A stretch of DNA of 64,000 nt from Escherichia virus KFS-EC3. How positions within the stretch are numbered: the stretch's first letter is position 1; every line of letters starts with the position of its first letter. Below, one piece after another: positions 3,677 through 34,147 of this stretch. Made by a program: the position numbers and the translations under genes. The notes under the pieces were generated by a model. That model did no database searches and had not been told where the DNA came from. It saw nothing but the letters and a program-made list of their open reading frames with translations. The stretch is from the sequence record MZ065353.1. The stretch is one strand, 5' to 3'.

Positions 3677-4308
3677 ATGTGCCACATGTTTATAAGTATA
3701 AACATCCTAAAACTAAAAAGTGGTATATAGGAAGTCATGATGGTCACAACCCGAATTATGATGGTTCGGGTGTAGTTTGGCAACATGCTAAAAAGAAATA
3801 TGGAATAAAATCCTTTAATAAAGAAATATTATATGAAGGACCAATGTTTAGACAGGTTGAAGAAATTATTTTAACTTGTTTAGATGCTGCTAATTGTCCG
3901 GATTCATATAATTTAAAGAATGAAGCATGGGGAGGAAGTTTTCCAGGCAAATTAAATGGAATGTACGGTAAAAAACTATCTCCAGAAGAAAGATATAAGT
4001 GCGGAAATGCCTTTCGTGGAATCAAGCGTCCTGATCATTCTAAAAGAATGAAAGGCGAAGGTAATCCAATGTATGGTAAAAATGAGCAGGCATATGGAAT
4101 TATAAATCGAGCCAAGGAAAATTCTGGTAAAACTTATGAAGAAATTTTTGGCGTAGAAAAAGCTAAAATAATTAAAGAAACGATGTCTAAAAATCGTAAA
4201 GGAAAACCTCATAATTTGATAGAAAAAATATGTCCGCATTGCGGACTAAAAGGACGTGGGCCAAATATGACAAGATACCATTTTGACAAATGTAAGGCAC
4301 TTAAATGA
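3667..4308 (+). CDS. GIY-YIG homing endonuclease-like protein (Seg-type) with NUMOD3-like repeats
   Basis: VYKYKHPKTKKWYIGSH...YDGSG motif; repeated G-K/R-x-S/N modules; C-terminal CPHC...C; overlaps 42 stop and downstream start. Confidence 0.75.
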   Translation: MEVNVPHVYKYKHPKTKKWYIGSHDGHNPNYDGSGVVWQHAKKKYGIKSFNKEILYEGPMFRQVEEIILTCLDAANCPDSYNLKNEAWGGSFPGKLNGMYGKKLSPEERYKCGNAFRGIKRPDHSKRMKGEGNPMYGKNEQAYGIINRAKENSGKTYEEIFGVEKAKIIKETMSKNRKGKPHNLIEKICPHCGLKGRGPNMTRYHFDKCKALK

Positions 4309-5147
4309 TTCAATTCGTAATTCCAAGCTATCAACGCGTAGGGGCAGTTTCTGCCCTTGATATGTTTCCGACTGATTATGAACCTCATATTGTAGTACGT
4401 GAACACGAAGAAAAAGCTTATTATGACGCTTACGGGTCTAGGGCTAAAATTATAACTATTCCTGATGATGTCAATGGAATTGCTGGTACTCGTAAAGCAA
4501 TTACTGATATGTATGCAGGTCAACGAATTTGGATGATTGATGATGATACTACTATTCGTATGAGTTCAATGCGAAAGAAAGATGATCGTCGCTGCGTAGA
4601 TAAAATTAATCAGTTAACTCGTGAACAGTTCTATGAATTGATTCAATACGTTGAAGATGCCATGGATTGCGGGTATTATCATGGTCATGCTCGTTTACCA
4701 ATTTTTAAAATTACTTCATCTTGGGGTAATTATCGTGAAAATTCATATGGATTCACGAATACTTGGTATGACCTCGGGAAACTTACAACAGAACAAATTG
4801 GGTATGGAAAAATTGATTTATGCGAAGATATGTATGCATTTCTCAATTTAATTAATCAAGGTTATCCGCATTTGGCCTTGTTCAAATATCTGGTTGTATC
4901 CGGAAAAGCGCAAGCTCCTGGTGGATGTAGTTCAATTCGTAGTAATTCAAAACATAATAGAGCTCTTGAGCAAATCAATAGAGAGTTTCCAGAGCAAGCT
5001 CGTTGGAAAACTTCTAATATTGAAAAACGAAAATCATTAGGTGAAGAAGACGAGCCATTAAAGGTTCTTCGCATGTGTGTTTCGCGCAAAGAAAAATCAG
5101 AAGCGTTTCATAAGTTTAATGCTATTCATCCAATAGCAGTTGATTAA
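4305..5147 (+). CDS. GT-A fold glycosyltransferase, probable DNA (glucosyl-)HMC glucosyltransferase
   Basis: 280 aa; VIPSYQR N-terminus and DxD motif IWMIDDDTTI; occupies T4 beta-gt locus between 42 and uvsX. Confidence 0.6.
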   Translation: MIQFVIPSYQRVGAVSALDMFPTDYEPHIVVREHEEKAYYDAYGSRAKIITIPDDVNGIAGTRKAITDMYAGQRIWMIDDDTTIRMSSMRKKDDRRCVDKINQLTREQFYELIQYVEDAMDCGYYHGHARLPIFKITSSWGNYRENSYGFTNTWYDLGKLTTEQIGYGKIDLCEDMYAFLNLINQGYPHLALFKYLVVSGKAQAPGGCSSIRSNSKHNRALEQINREFPEQARWKTSNIEKRKSLGEEDEPLKVLRMCVSRKEKSEAFHKFNAIHPIAVD

Positions 5148-6752: not shown

Positions 6753-8180
6753 GTGGTAGAAATTATTCTTTCTCATCTCATATTTGATCAAGCTTATTTT
6801 TCAAAAGTTTGGCCATATATGGATTCAGAATATTTTGAAAGTGGTCCAGCTAAAAATACATTCAAATTAATTAAATCTCATGTTAATGAGTACCATAGCG
6901 TTCCATCTATTAATGCGTTAAATGTTGCATTAGAAAATAGTTCATTTACTGAAACAGAATATTCTGGTGTAAAAACACTTATTTCAAAACTGGCCGATTC
7001 TCCGGAAGACCATAGCTGGTTAGTAAAAGAAACAGAAAAATATGTTCAGCAAAGGGCGATGTTTAACGCCACATCTAAAATAATTGAAATTCAAACTAAT
7101 GCTGAGCTTCCTCCGGAAAAACGAAATAAGAAAATGCCAGATGTAGGTGCTATTCCTGACATCATGCGCCAAGCATTATCAATTTCATTTGATAGCTACG
7201 TTGGTCATGATTGGATGGATGACTACGAAGCACGTTGGCTATCTTATATGAATAAAGCTCGTAAGGTTCCATTTAAACTCAAAATTCTAAATAAAATTAC
7301 TAAAGGCGGAGCTGAGACTGGAACACTGAACGTTTTAATGGCTGGTGTTAACGTTGGTAAGTCATTAGGATTGTGTTCATTGGCAGCAGATTATTTGCAG
7401 CTCGGACACAATGTTCTTTACATTTCCATGGAAATGGCAGAAGAAGTCTGTGCTAAACGTATTGATGCTAATATGCTTGACGTTTCTCTTGATGACATTG
7501 ATGATGGGCATATTTCTTACGCTGAATATAAAGGAAAAATGGAAAAATGGCGTGAGAAATCTACTCTTGGACGTTTAATCGTTAAACAGTATCCTACTGG
7601 TGGAGCAGACGCTAATACATTTCGATCGCTTTTAAACGAATTAAAGCTCAAGAAGAATTTTGTTCCAACAATCATTATTGTTGACTATCTAGGTATTTGT
7701 AAATCTTGTCGCATCAGAGTTTATTCAGAAAATAGTTACACAACTGTTAAAGCTATCGCAGAGGAATTGCGTGCTCTGGCTGTTGAAACCGAAACTGTTC
7801 TTTGGACTGCAGCACAGGTTGGTAAACAAGCTTGGGATTCTTCTGATGTTAACATGAGCGATATTGCAGAATCTGCCGGTCTTCCAGCAACAGCCGATTT
7901 TATGCTTGCGGTCATTGAAACCGAGGAGTTAGCAGCTGCTGAACAACAACTCATTAAGCAAATCAAATCACGATACGGTGATAAGAATAAATGGAATAAG
8001 TTTTTGATGGGTGTTCAAAAAGGAAATCAGAAATGGGTAGAAATTGAACAAGATTCTACTCCAACTGAAGTGAACGAAGTAGCAGGTTCACAGCAGATTC
8101 AGGCTGAACAGAATCGCTATCAAAGAAACGAATCCGCTCGAGCTCAGTTAGATGCTTTGGCAAATGAATTAAAATTTTAG
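6753..8180 (+). CDS. 41: replicative DNA helicase gp41 (DnaB family)
   Basis: 475 aa; GTG start; Walker A GVNVGKS. Confidence 0.95.
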   Translation: MVEIILSHLIFDQAYFSKVWPYMDSEYFESGPAKNTFKLIKSHVNEYHSVPSINALNVALENSSFTETEYSGVKTLISKLADSPEDHSWLVKETEKYVQQRAMFNATSKIIEIQTNAELPPEKRNKKMPDVGAIPDIMRQALSISFDSYVGHDWMDDYEARWLSYMNKARKVPFKLKILNKITKGGAETGTLNVLMAGVNVGKSLGLCSLAADYLQLGHNVLYISMEMAEEVCAKRIDANMLDVSLDDIDDGHISYAEYKGKMEKWREKSTLGRLIVKQYPTGGADANTFRSLLNELKLKKNFVPTIIIVDYLGICKSCRIRVYSENSYTTVKAIAEELRALAVETETVLWTAAQVGKQAWDSSDVNMSDIAESAGLPATADFMLAVIETEELAAAEQQLIKQIKSRYGDKNKWNKFLMGVQKGNQKWVEIEQDSTPTEVNEVAGSQQIQAEQNRYQRNESARAQLDALANELKF

Positions 8181-8209
8181 TTTACAAGCCGACAAGACTA
8201 TGGTATAGT
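8180..8209 (+). promoter_or_regulatory. early promoter upstream of dmd
   Basis: TTTACA-N17-TATAGT right after 41 stop; inverted repeat CAAGACTA/TAGTCTTG brackets the -10. Confidence 0.5.
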
Positions 8210-8238
8210 AGTCTTGTTGGTTAAATGAGGAGATTTTT

Positions 8239-8421
8239 ATGGAATTGGTAAAGGTAGTTTTTATGGGGTGGTTTAAGAATGAAAGCATGTTTACTAAAGA
8301 AATCACAATGATGAAAGATGACGTTCAATGGGCTACTACTCAATATGCTGAAGTTAATAAAGCGCTAGTTAAAGCTTTCATTGATGACAAGAAAGTATGC
8401 GAAGTGGATTGCCGAGGATAA
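8239..8421 (+). CDS. dmd: Dmd, antitoxin against RnlA/LsoA
   Basis: 60 aa, matches T4 Dmd (gene 61.5) as recalled; adjacent to 41. Confidence 0.85.
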   Translation: MELVKVVFMGWFKNESMFTKEITMMKDDVQWATTQYAEVNKALVKAFIDDKKVCEVDCRG

Positions 8422-8422
8422 T

Positions 8423-8680
8423 ATGCATATTGTTTTATTTAAACCTACTCCGTATAACGTCAGGAAAAATACTCAATTCAAAGCACTTATCGCAGATACG
8501 TGGGAATTGGTATTAGATATTCCAGCAGAAGAAAGCCCTCCATTTGGTCGAGTGGAATTTATTAAGTTTGCTGTGCGCCCTACAAAGCGGCAGATTCGCC
8601 AATGCAAAAGATACTTTCGTAAAATCGTCAAGTTAGAGAAACAGTTTGTAACATGTGATTATACAGAAGTTTTAAAATAG
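8423..8680 (+). CDS. hypothetical protein, T4 61.4-like (85 aa)
   Basis: ATG after SD GAGGATAAT, 2 nt past dmd stop; position matches T4 61.4. Confidence 0.55.
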   Translation: MHIVLFKPTPYNVRKNTQFKALIADTWELVLDIPAEESPPFGRVEFIKFAVRPTKRQIRQCKRYFRKIVKLEKQFVTCDYTEVLK

Positions 8681-8682
8681 TA

Positions 8683-8712
8683 GTTTACAAGCTGATAGAG
8701 TTGTGTTATAGT
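8683..8712 (+). promoter_or_regulatory. early promoter
   Basis: TAG-TTTACA-N17-TATAGT; inverted repeat GCTGATAGAG/TCTATCAGC around -10. Confidence 0.5.
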
Positions 8713-8743
8713 AATTCTATCAGCTAATCGCGGAGAAAAGAAA

Positions 8744-8998
8744 ATGATGCTAGTTAATAGAGAATATCAGTTTAAATCAGAAGAAGATTTGGAAAAATTC
8801 GCGAGTGGTTGTGAACTGAATAGACGCACAGCTAAAGTCATAGGATTAAAACCCTTTACAGTTCTAGATTGTGAAGTTTCTAAATTCCGCAGAGGGTGTT
8901 CTATTAGCGGTCATGCTCTTGTTGATGGGAACACATTTTTCTTTGTTTTTAGCGTCAGAGAACTTTTATTGATTAACGAACTTGAGGAAATAAAATAG
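8744..8998 (+). CDS. hypothetical protein (84 aa)
   Basis: ORF with SD GGAGAAAAG and its own early promoter. Confidence 0.5.
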   Translation: MMLVNREYQFKSEEDLEKFASGCELNRRTAKVIGLKPFTVLDCEVSKFRRGCSISGHALVDGNTFFFVFSVRELLLINELEEIK

Positions 8999-9062
8999 TT
9001 TACTTTTGTTTTAAACATGTTATTATAGACCTATCAAAACAAACGAGTAAATGGAGAACAAA

Positions 9063-9245
9063 ATGTCTAAAGTATCAGGTTATCAATTATTAACACAAGA
9101 ACAACGCTCAGAGATGGATTCTTTACAAGAACGGTGTCAGCATAGAAATAACGCACTTGATTCATTTTTATTAGTTGAATATGAAAACTTGTGCTCTAGA
9201 CTTGAAAAAGAATATGTTCATCAACATGAAGGAGGAGAAGAATGA
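9063..9245 (+). CDS. hypothetical protein (60 aa)
   Basis: ATG after SD GGAG (alternative ATG at 9051); preceded by early promoter near 8998-9027. Confidence 0.45.
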   Translation: MSKVSGYQLLTQEQRSEMDSLQERCQHRNNALDSFLLVEYENLCSRLEKEYVHQHEGGEE

Positions 9246-9348
9246 AACTGAAATCACCAATTATTGCAATTTGTCTGTTTGCTTCTACTAGTGTTTACTT
9301 TTGTTGAAAATTGAGATACTATAAACATAAACTACTGAGGAGATTATC

Positions 9349-9642
9349 ATGAAAAAATTTATCTTTGCTGCAATTTTTGCTTTATCTTCTTGCGCTGCTC
9401 AGCCTGCTATGGCAGGTTATGATAAAGACTTGTGTGAATGGTCTATGACTGCAGATCAGACTGAAGTTGAAACTCAAATTGAAGCAGATATTATGAATAT
9501 CGTTGAGCGTGATCGTCCTGAAATGAAAGCTGAAGTGCAAAAACAGCTTAAGTCTGGTGGTGTAATGCAGTATAATTATGTTCTATATTGCGATAAAAAC
9601 TTTAATAATAAAAATATCGTCGCTGAAGTGGTAGGTGAATAA
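9349..9642 (+). CDS. sp: spackle periplasmic protein Sp
   Basis: 97 aa with cleavable signal peptide, same length as T4 Sp (61.3); SD GGAGATTATC. Confidence 0.8.
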   Translation: MKKFIFAAIFALSSCAAQPAMAGYDKDLCEWSMTADQTEVETQIEADIMNIVERDRPEMKAEVQKQLKSGGVMQYNYVLYCDKNFNNKNIVAEVVGE

Positions 9643-10268
9643 TGCTTTACCAAATGCACAAGTGCAAAGATACATACAAATATAAAGGTGCCCAGTGTTA
9701 TATCATTAATCGTGAAAACGCGGGTCCAGGTCATTCGCATCAATCACGGTTTGTATTCGTTAAAAACAATGAAATTATAGCAGTTGCTAATTACATGCTT
9801 GTGACTAATGACGTTAATCCGGTGCCTTTTACATATTATAATCTAATGGACTTGGCGTACGATTATAATTGGTTTAATCATGATAATTTGGCTCATATTG
9901 AAGGCGTAGGATTTGACATCTCTTATTCTAGTTACTCGTTATGTCCTATGAGCAGAGCTCATAAAGAGCCTGAATATTTTTCATTTCGTCGGCGTGTAGA
10001 CTTTAAACGCAGCACAGAGTATGTCGGTGGAATCTTTGTTAAAGATAATCGAATTACTCGCATTATTTATCCTTTGGGCTGTGGTCAAAAAGATATTGAT
10101 GTTGATTTAGACTTTACTGAAAACATCATTAATCATATTGCTTCTGTGTATTTTGATATTGATCACAAAATTGTAATATGTGGATATGAATTACCATCAG
10201 AAAAACAGTCTAAAGTGAATGTTTCTATTGATGACCAAATTTTTAATGCTTTTATGAATAGAGGTTAA
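9642..10268 (+). CDS. hypothetical protein, T4 61.2-like (208 aa)
   Basis: ORF start overlaps sp stop; position between sp and 61. Confidence 0.6.
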   Translation: MLYQMHKCKDTYKYKGAQCYIINRENAGPGHSHQSRFVFVKNNEIIAVANYMLVTNDVNPVPFTYYNLMDLAYDYNWFNHDNLAHIEGVGFDISYSSYSLCPMSRAHKEPEYFSFRRRVDFKRSTEYVGGIFVKDNRITRIIYPLGCGQKDIDVDLDFTENIINHIASVYFDIDHKIVICGYELPSEKQSKVNVSIDDQIFNAFMNRG

Positions 10269-10269
10269 T

Positions 10270-10434
10270 ATGAAAACATATAAAGAATTTATCAAAGAAG
10301 ATATGGTAGCTGGAGATTCAGGTGGTAATCCTGAAAATATCTCCACTGGAACAACATCAGGCGCTGTAGTAAATAAAGGTCCTGAACAGATTCCTAAAAA
10401 GAAAAAAGAGGAATCTAAAGAAAAAGAAGAGTAA
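10270..10434 (+). CDS. hypothetical small protein, T4 61.1-like (54 aa)
   Basis: Uninterrupted ORF filling the gap between 61.2-like and 61; below ORF-track cutoff. Confidence 0.4.
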   Translation: MKTYKEFIKEDMVAGDSGGNPENISTGTTSGAVVNKGPEQIPKKKKEESKEKEE

Positions 10435-10436
10435 AA

Positions 10437-11465
10437 ATGTCATCAATACCTTGGATTGATAATGAGTTTGCATATCGTGCATTAGCTCATTTACCTAAAT
10501 TCACACAAGTAAATAATAGTTCAACTTTTAAATTGCGGTTTAGATGCCCTGTTTGTGGAGATTCAAAAACCGACCAAAATAAAGCCCGTGGATGGTATTA
10601 TGGCGATAATAATGAAGGAAATATTCATTGTTATAACTGCAACTATCATGCACCAATCGGAATATATTTAAAGGAGTTTGAACCCGATTTATATCGTGAG
10701 TATATCTTTGAAATAAGAAAAGAAAAAGGTAAAAGTCGTCCAGTAGAAAAACCTAAAGAACTTCCTAAACAACCTGAGAAGAAAATAATTAAATCTCTTC
10801 CGTCATGCATTAGATTAGATAAATTGGCGGAAGACCATCCAATTATAAAATATGTAAAAGCTCGCTGTATTCCAAAGGATAAATGGAAATATCTTTGGTT
10901 TACAACCGAATGGCCTAAATTAGTTAATAGCATAGCACCAGGAACATACAAAAAGGAAATACCTGAGCCTCGTCTTGTTATTCCAATTTATAATGCTAAT
11001 GGAAAAGCTGAGTCTTTTCAAGGACGTGCATTAAAGAAAGATGCTCCTCAAAAATATATCACCATCAAAGCTTATCCTGAAGCAACAAAAATCTATGGCG
11101 TTGAACGAGTTAAAGATGGTGATGTATATGTTCTAGAAGGACCTATAGATTCACTTTTTATTGAAAATGGTATAGCTATTACAGGTGGTCAATTAGACCT
11201 AGAAATTGTTCCATTTAAAGATAGACGTGTGTGGGTTTTAGATAATGAACCTCGTCATCCTGACACTATTAAACGAATGACTAAATTAGTTGATGCAGGA
11301 GAAAGGGTTATGTTTTGGGACAAATCTCCCTGGAAATCAAAAGATGTTAATGATATGATTAGAAAGGAAGGTGCAACCCCTGAACAAATTATGGAATATA
11401 TGAAAAATAATATTGCCCAGGGGTTGATGGCTAAAATGCGGCTATCTAAATATGCTAAGATTTAA
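10437..11465 (+). CDS. 61: DNA primase gp61
   Basis: 342 aa; Zn-ribbon CPVCGDS...CYNC; matches T4 gp61 length. Confidence 0.95.
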   Translation: MSSIPWIDNEFAYRALAHLPKFTQVNNSSTFKLRFRCPVCGDSKTDQNKARGWYYGDNNEGNIHCYNCNYHAPIGIYLKEFEPDLYREYIFEIRKEKGKSRPVEKPKELPKQPEKKIIKSLPSCIRLDKLAEDHPIIKYVKARCIPKDKWKYLWFTTEWPKLVNSIAPGTYKKEIPEPRLVIPIYNANGKAESFQGRALKKDAPQKYITIKAYPEATKIYGVERVKDGDVYVLEGPIDSLFIENGIAITGGQLDLEIVPFKDRRVWVLDNEPRHPDTIKRMTKLVDAGERVMFWDKSPWKSKDVNDMIRKEGATPEQIMEYMKNNIAQGLMAKMRLSKYAKI

Positions 11466-21797: not shown

Positions 21798-22013
21798 ATG
21801 AAACGTAAAATTGTTCAGAACTGCACTAATGACGAATTTGAAGATGTATTATTCGATCCAGATTTGGTAGTAGTTCAAAAGGAACATACTGTTAAGTTTA
21901 CTCACTTGACTTCGGTTTATGTGTATGAGAAAGTCGGCGATAAACAGCCAATTTACGGTGTATTTCGTGAAATTACTGAAGATGGCACAACTTACTGGAA
22001 GGAAATTTATTAA
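21798..22013 (+). CDS. hypothetical protein (71 aa)
   Basis: ATG after SD GAGGAAATTGTA. Confidence 0.4.
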
Positions 22014-22432
22014 TGGCTATTAAATTTGAAGTTAATAAATGGTATCAATTTAAAAATAAACAGGCTCAAGAAAATTTTATTAAAGACCATACTGATAACG
22101 GAATCTATGCACGACGTTTAGGTATGGAACCTTTTAAAATTTTAGATGTGGACTATTACGGGCGTCCTACTAAAATTGTGACATCTACTGGCACAGTTGG
22201 ATATGCAACACATGGTGATATCCTTGACGAAAACTTTATCTGGCTTTCTACTAACGAAGCTGGGTTCTTTGATGAAGTGGAAAATCCATACCAGGCATCT
22301 GAAGAACAAGAGCAGGAAGAGCAAGAACAAATAGAAGATTTCACAGAATTCCCAGTCATGAAAGTTACTATTGAAAATAATGAACAGGCATGGTCCTTGT
22401 ATCAGATGTTGAAAGCACACTTTAAGGAATAA
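22013..22432 (+). CDS. hypothetical protein (139 aa) with acidic EQ-repeat tract
   Basis: ORF start overlaps previous stop; [10 protein letters not shown] stretch. Confidence 0.5.
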
Positions 22433-22613: not shown

Positions 22614-22985
22614 ATGTTTAAAATCGGTAAGAAATATCGTATTCGCGAAGGTGAAGAACAGAAATATCTACTTTCTGCTAGTAATAGGAATAGTTCTATT
22701 AATGCCGTAATATCTACAAGCGAATTTATCGTTGAAGATATGAAAGGTCATAATGTTACAATGATTAGTACAGCATCTGGAAATGATGGAAAAATTCTTC
22801 ATAGTTGTCAGAGTAATGTTCTAATTTATGATGAAGAATTTGACTTCTTCAAAGAAGTTTCCGAAGATTTTAATTTTGAATGTACTATCACTATGAAATC
22901 TGGCGACCCTCTTTCTTTTACAGTTAAAGATGAAAGAAGTCGCTTGAGAATTATTAGTCTCCTTCAAGCCATTAAATTTGAGTGA
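22614..22985 (+). CDS. hypothetical protein (123 aa)
   Basis: ORF immediately after the zinc-ribbon ORF. Confidence 0.5.
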   Translation: MFKIGKKYRIREGEEQKYLLSASNRNSSINAVISTSEFIVEDMKGHNVTMISTASGNDGKILHSCQSNVLIYDEEFDFFKEVSEDFNFECTITMKSGDPLSFTVKDERSRLRIISLLQAIKFE

Positions 22986-33440: not shown

Positions 33441-33470
33441 GTTTACAACCAAAGCATTCCATGGTACTAT
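33441..33470 (+). promoter_or_regulatory. early promoter (PeSL-like cassette, variant leader) upstream of motA
   Basis: TTTACA-N17-TACTAT; leader ACAACTATCAACTACTGATACAG. Confidence 0.5.
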
Positions 33471-33511
33471 ACAACTATCAACTACTGATACAGAATTACG
33501 GAGATTAGAAA

Positions 33512-34147
33512 ATGTCTAAAGTAACTTACATCATCAAAGCTTCTAACGATGTTCTGAATGAAAAAACTGCCGCAATTTTAATTACCATTGCTAAGAAAGA
33601 TTTCATTACAGCTGCAGAAGTTCGTGAGGTGCATCCAGATTTAGGTAACGCAGTAGTTAATAGTAATATTGGGGTATTGATTAAAAAAGGCCTGGTGGAG
33701 AAATCTGGTGATGGATTAATCATTACAGGCGAAGCTCAGGATATTATTTCAAATGCGGCAACTTTATATGCACAGGAAAATGCTCCTGAACTACTGAAAA
33801 AACGAGCAACTCGTAAAGCTCGTGAGATTACTTCCGATATGGAAGAAGATAAAGACTTCATGTTAAAACTTTTAGATGAAAATGGATTTGTTCTTAAAAA
33901 GGTTGAAACTTATCGCAGTAACTATCTCGCTATTTTAGAAAAACGCACTCATGGAATTCGTAATTTTGAAATTAACAACAATGGAAATATGCGAATTTTT
34001 GGATACAAAATGATGGAACATCATATTCAGAAATTTACTGACATCGGTATGTCATGCAAAATCGCTAAAAATGGTAATGTGTATCTTGACATTAAACGCT
34101 CAGCAGAAAACATTGAAGCTGTAATCACTGTAGCATCTGAACTGTGA
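33512..34147 (+). CDS. motA: middle transcription activator MotA
   Basis: 211 aa, matches T4 MotA length. Confidence 0.9.
   Translation: MSKVTYIIKASNDVLNEKTAAILITIAKKDFITAAEVREVHPDLGNAVVNSNIGVLIKKGLVEKSGDGLIITGEAQDIISNAATLYAQENAPELLKKRATRKAREITSDMEEDKDFMLKLLDENGFVLKKVETYRSNYLAILEKRTHGIRNFEINNNGNMRIFGYKMMEHHIQKFTDIGMSCKIAKNGNVYLDIKRSAENIEAVITVASEL

Follow-up and report, generated by a model that had tools for sequence, protein, structure and literature searches.

The 64,000-nucleotide (nt) stretch of DNA analyzed here (Escherichia virus KFS-EC3, sequence record MZ065353.1; hereafter, the window) represents the early region of a Tequatrovirus, with transcription on the + strand, and between the tifA and sp genes it harbors two small open reading frames (ORFs), ORF84 (84 amino acids (aa); 8744-8998, +) and ORF60 (60 aa; 9063-9245, +). 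The explanation that best accounts for them, and that we regard as fairly probable, is that they are two shuffled early cassettes encoding dispensable factors involved in host takeover or counter-defence; the cassette architecture and its shuffling, taken as a whole, can be proposed with high confidence. According to this scheme, the tifA-sp junction is composed of two self-contained, single-gene early-expression cassettes of 315 base pairs (bp; 8683-8997) and 295 bp (8998-9292). In each of them, one small ORF with its ribosome-binding site follows a sigma-70 early promoter of the T4 type, located right against the upstream stop codon.

Structure and distribution of the tifA-sp interval

The gap between 61.4 (tifA) and sp spans 60 nt in T4 versus 668 nt in the window; therefore, ORF84 and ORF60 represent extra content and have no homologs among the T4 61.x genes. 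An initial annotation of this DNA had placed two further small ORFs before sp, which are indeed present, and its statement that T4 has fewer ORFs in this region turned out to be correct. The comparison of the interval in T4, T2 and T6 revealed the empty arrangement in all three phages (for T2, as read from its annotation), and neither ORF is homologous to any T4 61.x gene. Dozens of GenBank records already list the two products as hypothetical, and the architecture is of a known type.

A generic sigma-70 scan of the window was not enriched (26 promoters found vs. 24.9 expected) and was replaced by the T4-specific early-promoter pattern GTTTAC-N16-18-TAnnnT. This pattern has 20 matches on the + strand and none on the - strand, vs. 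1.3 expected from shuffles; when the extended -10 TG is included, 17 matches are found vs. 0.12 expected. Four of the 20, at positions 8180, 8683, 8998 and 9293, fall within 1.1 kilobases (kb) and form the densest cluster of the window. Two of these bear out the earlier statement that each extra ORF has its own early promoter abutting a stop codon: in the ORF84 cassette (promoter at 8683-8712, +; inverted repeat I5) the GTTTAC starts 2 nt past the tifA stop, and in the ORF60 cassette (8998-9026, +) it starts on the final base of the ORF84 stop. The other two belong to the dmd-tifA operon (GTTTAC-N-TGGTATAGT; 8180-8209, +; inverted repeat I8) and to sp (9293-9322, +); the latter promoter is the same in T4, and its first 13 nt, GTTTACTTTTGTT (direct repeat D3), repeat the start of the ORF60 promoter located 295 nt upstream. 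Since both ORFs have their own early promoters, the two proteins should be made in the first minutes of the infection, independently of dmd-tifA.

Stem-loops were found at two of these promoters. The one overlapping the dmd promoter (8189-8220) covers the spacer and the -10 (-21.8 kcal/mol, z-score -5.1), and the ORF84 promoter harbors a 13/13-nt stem-loop (8690-8725) over the same two elements (-18.0 kcal/mol, z-score -3.6). The scan for intrinsic terminators retrieved nothing in the dmd-sp interval, and the hairpins of the interval are not classical terminators because they lack a U-tract. Moreover, Rfam and tRNA scans of positions 7900-9700 gave no match.

The phylogenetic distribution of the two ORFs was checked through a tblastn search of 50,697 phage records. 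ORF84 was retrieved from 83 records, 70 of them at an identity of at least 95% and 13 at about 57% (e.g., Gaprivervirus SP18), and ORF60 from 20 records, with an identity never below 98%. In the reference collection, the best matches to the window over 24 kb are about 97% identical, and Shigella phage SH-1 shares 99.9% identity across the tifA-sp locus. The 514 records matching the locus fall into four span classes, i.e., 901 nt with both ORFs (16 records), about 593 nt with ORF84 only (about 54 records), about 580 nt with ORF60 only (4 records) and 293 nt with neither of them (the T4 type, including T4 and T6; the remainder, about 85%). T2 falls outside the 293-nt class because its sp has diverged. 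ORF84 and ORF60 assort independently, and most relatives lack them.

The junction sequences of T4, LYE-01 (ORF84 only), ECP2301 (ORF60 only) and REP4/ime09 (both) were then compared, and the four span classes match the four junction states exactly. The GTTTACTTTTGTT copies at 8998 and 9293 make up a direct repeat of 13-18 nt flanking the ORF60 cassette, and in the phages harboring only ORF84 the stop of this ORF is joined directly to the sp promoter at TAGTTTACTTTTGTTGG. In those harboring only ORF60, the CAAAATG of this ORF is attached to the ORF84 promoter with its GCGGAGAA, an arrangement that, judging from the junction, represents a deletion between successive ribosome-binding sites. The gain/loss junctions are located either within the shared -35 block GTTTACTTTTGTT or within the ribosome-binding sequence GGAGAA; as far as sequence comparison can tell, this placement is the product expected from recombination between repeated early-promoter/leader motifs, that is, from modular shuffling of the promoter-early stem-loop (PeSL) type.

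As for the coding status of the two ORFs, diverged full-length homologs were found for both. The comparison of ORF84 with homologs about 80% identical gave a proportion of nonsynonymous differences (pN) of 0.13 and a proportion of synonymous ones (pS) of 0.75-0.80; in the ORF60 family, pN is 0.34-0.40 and pS is 0.77-0.91 (saturated). These values indicate that ORF84 and ORF60 are real genes under purifying selection. If they were instead chance reading frames in intergenic DNA, and no genes at all, their small size and the lack of a Pfam match would be accounted for, but each of them can be assigned to a PHROG family and is preceded by a promoter and a ribosome-binding site, and the full length is kept in homologs sharing 44-81% identity, with pN far below pS. 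We consider this reading extremely improbable, and the comparative data have effectively refuted it.

ORF84 is preceded by a GGAG at 8732-8735. Concerning the start of ORF60, the ATG at position 9051 was rejected, ECP2301 lacking this ATG and retaining the gene. In the 64-aa version of ORF60, the alignment with the PHROG profile begins at residue 5, i.e., at the ATG at 9063. Both these data assign the start to the ATG at 9063, which is preceded by a GGAG (9053-9056).

The two cassettes are embedded in an otherwise familiar set of genes. Upstream of them lie gene 41 (6753-8180, +), dmd (8239-8421, +) and tifA (8423-8680, +), in agreement with the initial annotation, which had recognized Dmd followed by a 61.4-like ORF. 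The product of dmd, an antitoxin mimic acting against RnlA/LsoA, matches Pfam Dmd (1.6e-46) and is identical to T4 Dmd at 60 out of 60 residues; that of tifA (61.4), a ToxN inhibitor named according to PMC9391042, matches DUF7279 (2.2e-20) and belongs to the 85-aa T4-type variant, with 83 out of 85 residues (98%) identical to T4 61.4. Downstream, sp (spackle; 9349-9642, +; Pfam T4_Spackle, 2.2e-45) is followed by 61.2, that is adfA (anti-DarT factor A; 208 aa; 9642-10268, +; Pfam AdfA, 1.7e-136), 61.1 (10270-10434, +) and gene 61 (10437-11465, +). In ime09 (locus L002, 3041-3397) and T2 (L013, 2509-2865), a 118-aa gene is found where T4 and the window have the 208-aa adfA.

Some further features of the neighborhood deserve mention. 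The window pairs its 85-aa T4-type tifA with the ORF84 cassette, whereas the other annotated carriers that were inspected have an 80-aa tifA variant (L001, 1821-2063; L002, 1824-2066; L004, 1324-1566; L005, 1324-1566), and this difference suggests a recombination point near the 3' end of tifA. Three metagenomic T4-like contigs (L015, 2179-2940; L016, 2179-2940; L017, 1086-1847) harbor an unannotated 253-aa gene with no Pfam match directly after gene 41, in the slot occupied by dmd in Tequatrovirus; it is followed by an ORF84 homolog, tifA and sp. Furthermore, a direct repeat, AAAAT..TAGTTTAC, with copies at 8171-8185 and 8674-8688 (503 nt apart), flanks the dmd-tifA operon. The dmd-tifA locus underwent segmental amplifications by recombination during the experimental evolution of T4 on toxIN hosts (PMC9391042), with which the flanking repeats may be consistent.

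ORF84 and the GoF family

The ORF84 protein has no Pfam match, and its best PHROG is 2980 ("goF mRNA metabolism modulator", 3e-20). Weaker matches, limited to the N-terminal part, involve the PHROGs that hold the true goF of the window (139 aa; 22013-22432; PHROG 622) and 39.1, a goF paralog (22614-22985; PHROG 622); the PHROG matches common to ORF84 and GoF are 2980, 622, 13003 and 8464. The hhalign comparison of the ORF84 family with the GoF of the window aligned residues 3-45 of the former with residues 6-48 of the latter (97% probability, E 1e-10, 35% identity), and the one between ORF84 and 39.1 was not significant. On the basis of these alignments, ORF84 is recognizable as a short homolog of the N-terminal domain only of GoF, a member of the GoF/MotB.1/Frd.2 LSm/SH3-like family, and the label "goF mRNA metabolism modulator" attached to it by RefSeq and PHROG 2980 is an over-annotation. 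The PHROG naming of goF is inverted relative to T4 genetics: PHROG 622, which includes the real goF and 39.1, is labeled "unknown function", and the "goF" label is carried by PHROGs 2980, 13003 and 8944.

Four residues of ORF84 (C23, C43, C52 and H57) are invariant in all six members of the family, down to an identity of 56%, and have no equivalents in GoF. They may form a candidate metal (Zn) site, against which weighs the strand register of the protein, suggesting that C43 is far from C52. ORF84 is acidic, and its model is a predicted small beta-barrel whose fold neighbors include KOW, LSm and SH3 barrels, with residues 74-84 predicted to be disordered. By analogy with what has been proposed for the GoF family, ORF84 is most likely a small beta-barrel binding RNA or protein.

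The homologs of ORF84 are always located within the 41-sp interval, adjoining tifA or dmd, and this also holds for three other T4-like lineages. Their exact position differs: after tifA in Tequatrovirus, between 41 and dmd in SP18, and before tifA in three metagenomic T4-like contigs.

ORF60 and its relatives on mobile elements

The ORF60 protein (PHROG 37915) belongs to a small family that, outside these phages, is encoded on DNA resembling plasmids or integrative and conjugative elements (ICEs) and on one viral contig. HMMER, run exhaustively against 1.84 billion representatives, retrieved nine relatives only, sharing 44-59% identity over the alignment, and a word-indexed search of 5.8 billion proteins retrieved only close relatives. 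Among the relatives with a readable context, one is encoded by a Vibrio fluvialis plasmid, others by contig L009, which also harbors an integrase, a Gp49/HTH toxin-antitoxin (TA) pair and TrbL/VirB6, by contig L011, with Toprim/DUF3991 and ParA, and by one 87-kb IMG/VR viral contig; among cultured phages, ORF60 is limited to the 20 records mentioned above, all from Tequatrovirus. The complete genomes of E. coli gave no DNA match to the cassette, and scanning a single genome for each species with one pattern, which was not exhaustive, revealed no relative. On a further contig (L010, metagenomic, 33 kb), a 181-aa GmrSD_N (DUF262) protein (4294-4839) is encoded directly downstream of the ORF60 homolog.

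The 5' end of the cassette has a different affinity. The region 8998-9073 of the window, comprising the ORF60 promoter, the leader and the first 11 coding bases (including ATGTCTAAAGT), shares about 87-90% identity with motA from Mosigvirus APCEc01 over the promoter and the gene start, and the motA promoter of the window itself does not match it (regions considered: window 8998-9073, L014 1201-1285 and window 33441-33531). The native N-terminus of the ORF60 family reads ..KV[ST]GY, and for this reason the join between ORF60 and motA can be placed at an AAAGT microhomology. These data suggest that the ORF60 cassette is a chimera, that is, a plasmid-type gene captured at a motA-type 5' end. A foreign gene of the type found in plasmids or ICEs would have been fused to a motA promoter, leader and first four codons of the Mosigvirus type, and it would then have been placed beside sp via the shared GTTTACTTTTGTT.

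ORF60 has an isoelectric point of 4.9 and a net charge of -6, and a helix with a heptad-like hydrophobic stripe is predicted over residues 12-56. The model is most likely that of an acidic amphipathic helix, or hairpin, that would block a partner protein.

Immediately downstream, a possible ORF of 21 codons (MKLKSPIIAICLFASTSVYFC; 9242-9307, +) overlaps the ORF60 stop as ATGA and is preceded by AGGAGGAG. Its product is signal-peptide-like, and it shares a DNA match of 73% (repeat D1) with the signal-peptide region of sp (9369-9390). It is found solely in the 20 phages carrying ORF60, and it may be either what is left of the signal-peptide-coding 5' end of a gene for a secreted protein or a genuine micro-peptide, an assignment that is uncertain.

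Possible functions and comparison with known systems

The link, made in the initial annotation, between the dmd-proximal block and counter-defence against TA systems is one that has been published: the interval has been proposed to be an "anti-TA island", in which Dmd acts against RnlA, TifA (61.4) against ToxN and AdfA (61.2) against DarT, and the other genes of the island were named by the authors as attractive anti-toxin candidates (PMC9391042). TifA, a basic protein, traps ToxN on RNA and thereby inhibits it, and RNA binding is needed for the activity of TifA (PMC10853763). Like the known anti-TA genes, ORF84 and ORF60 belong to the 41-61 interval and are preceded by early promoters, and no paralog of either was found within the window. 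They fit accessory genes for host interaction or counter-defence in being early, small, sporadic, independently assorting and under purifying selection, with kin of ORF60 on mobile elements. With a length of 60-84 aa and no catalytic motifs, they are unlikely to be enzymes. We infer that both would be dispensable and would serve, in a host-specific manner, takeover or counter-defence by binding a host protein or RNA. The chance that at least one of them is a counter-defence factor of some type is roughly even; that at least one specifically neutralizes a TA toxin is rather doubtful.

Several points weigh against this reading. Both proteins and their family alignments were searched, and neither ORF84 nor ORF60 matches Dmd (PF17587), TifA (DUF7279), AdfA (PF23813), Pfam, NCBIfam, PADLOC or PDB sequences (weak zinc-finger-like matches, with E 0.002-0.9, being ignored). 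Only two of the four promoters have a convincing stem-loop, and thus those of ORF60 (z-score -0.85) and sp (z-score +0.45) are not classical PeSLs. The prediction of a single long helix in ORF60 was built on a two-sequence alignment, and its relatives have a four-residue insert, often containing proline, in the middle of the protein, which makes a helical hairpin equally likely. Lastly, residence in the interval may just reflect a permissive hyperplastic region, with no shared function.

A narrower possibility, raised in the initial annotation and to which we give rather little weight, is that one or both ORFs directly inhibit TA toxins (RnlA/LsoA, ToxN, DarT or others) and in this way extend the Dmd-TifA-AdfA island. 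Both map to the tifA-adfA part of the island of candidates proposed in the literature, their early expression signals resemble those of dmd-tifA, and they are small and sporadic, with a host-range-like distribution; moreover, the ORF84 homologs remain beside tifA or dmd in other lineages, and relatives of ORF60 are found on plasmids that also bear TA modules. However, this plasmid association comes from a single related plasmid lineage, neither ORF is homologous to Dmd, TifA or AdfA, and both are acidic, whereas TifA is basic and dependent on RNA binding (PMC10853763). The location itself is a weak predictor of an anti-TA role, since sp lies in the same interval and is not an anti-TA gene. A comparably low probability can be assigned to the idea that ORF84, as a minimal LSm/SH3 protein similar to GoF, modulates phage or host RNA post-transcriptionally and has no part in defence, with ORF60 as an unrelated passenger. 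The homology of ORF84 to the N-terminal domain of GoF, which holds the D25Y site, points in this direction, as do its predicted KOW, LSm and SH3 fold neighbors and the stabilization of gene 41 mRNA by GoF(D25Y), as reported in PMC12152347. In the same study, though, wild-type GoF and MotB.1 had hardly any effect, or none, in what is the sole functional assay of the family, a result that also weighs on the explanation that we prefer; furthermore, ORF84 is acidic, it has four invariant Cys/His residues absent from GoF, and the genome already harbors goF and 39.1.

Still less probable, in our opinion, is that the cassettes bring the phage no benefit, being hitch-hikers, either neutral or selfish, that owe their spread to promoter-mediated recombination. 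About 85% of the relatives thrive without them, the copies of the cassettes are nearly identical, suggesting a recent spread, and PeSL mini-circles are able to move ORFans (PMC2839356); but strong purifying selection is detected in both families across diverged homologs, the ORF84 family is kept in several genera, and useless DNA is costly because the capsid size limits the phage genome (PMC9391042).

The reading of ORF84 and ORF60 as shuffled early cassettes for host takeover or counter-defence can also be given a more specific form, which we advance only tentatively: ORF60 might belong to a new family, common to plasmids/ICEs and lytic phages, whose small acidic members inhibit a defence protein of bacteria (possibly a TA toxin), and it would have been captured recently by a T4-like phage and placed in the anti-TA island by promoter-promoter recombination, and ORF84 a GoF-derived metal-binding mini-domain acting as a second inhibitor. 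If either protein is a counter-defence factor, the anti-TA island of T-even phages gains a member, and the natural presence/absence series (none, ORF84 only, ORF60 only, both) is suited to host-range comparison. The ORF60 cassette would in turn be a worked example of a lytic phage converting a foreign gene into an early gene. As for the propagated "goF" annotation, it can be corrected, the 84-aa protein being a distant and partial relative of GoF.

Among the known systems, the GoF/MotB.1/Frd.2 LSm-like family (Kim et al. 2025, PMC12152347) resembles ORF84, which is likewise an early gene with a predicted beta-barrel having the same PDB neighbors (FeoA/IdeR-type SH3); the only experimental link of the family is to mRNA stability, and in the literature an effect on RNA stability or binding is shown for the GoF(D25Y) mutant only. 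The members of this family (about 120-140 aa) have an N-terminal LSm/SH3-like fold, made of a bent antiparallel beta-sheet of five strands, and a C-terminal domain on a flexible linker and are conserved across the subfamily, whereas ORF84 consists of 84 aa with no C-terminal domain, carries the invariant C23, C43, C52 and H57, unlike GoF, and is sporadic.

Conjugative plasmids and ICEs share small accessory genes with phages, e.g., the anti-restriction and anti-defence genes of plasmid leading regions. The relatives of ORF60 may be comparable to such genes, as they are part of series of small ORFs all read from one strand, borne by a Vibrio plasmid and by contigs where integrase, TA, TrbL/VirB6, ParA and Toprim genes also occur. 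With the dmd-tifA-adfA anti-TA island (PMC9391042; PMC10853763), ORF84 and ORF60 share the 41-61 interval, the early expression signals and the small size of the proteins, and dmd-tifA is itself flanked by promoter repeats (8171/8674). They differ from Dmd, TifA and AdfA in having no sequence similarity with them, and both are acidic, unlike the basic TifA.

Finally, PeSL ORFan cassettes are known for their modular shuffling in the hyperplastic regions of T4-type phages (Arbiol et al. 2010, PMC2839356; Comeau et al. 2014, PMC4122927). What departs from this model is the lack of a convincing stem-loop at the promoters of ORF60 and sp, together with the ECP2301 junction, which uses the GGAGAA ribosome-binding microhomology and not the promoter. 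The likeness lies in the strong sigma-70-type early promoter occupying the space between a stop codon and the ribosome-binding site that comes after it (8683, 8998), in the stem-loops at two promoters (dmd and ORF84), in the single small non-essential ORFs residing in a hyperplastic region, and in the gain/loss junctions inside a repeated motif.

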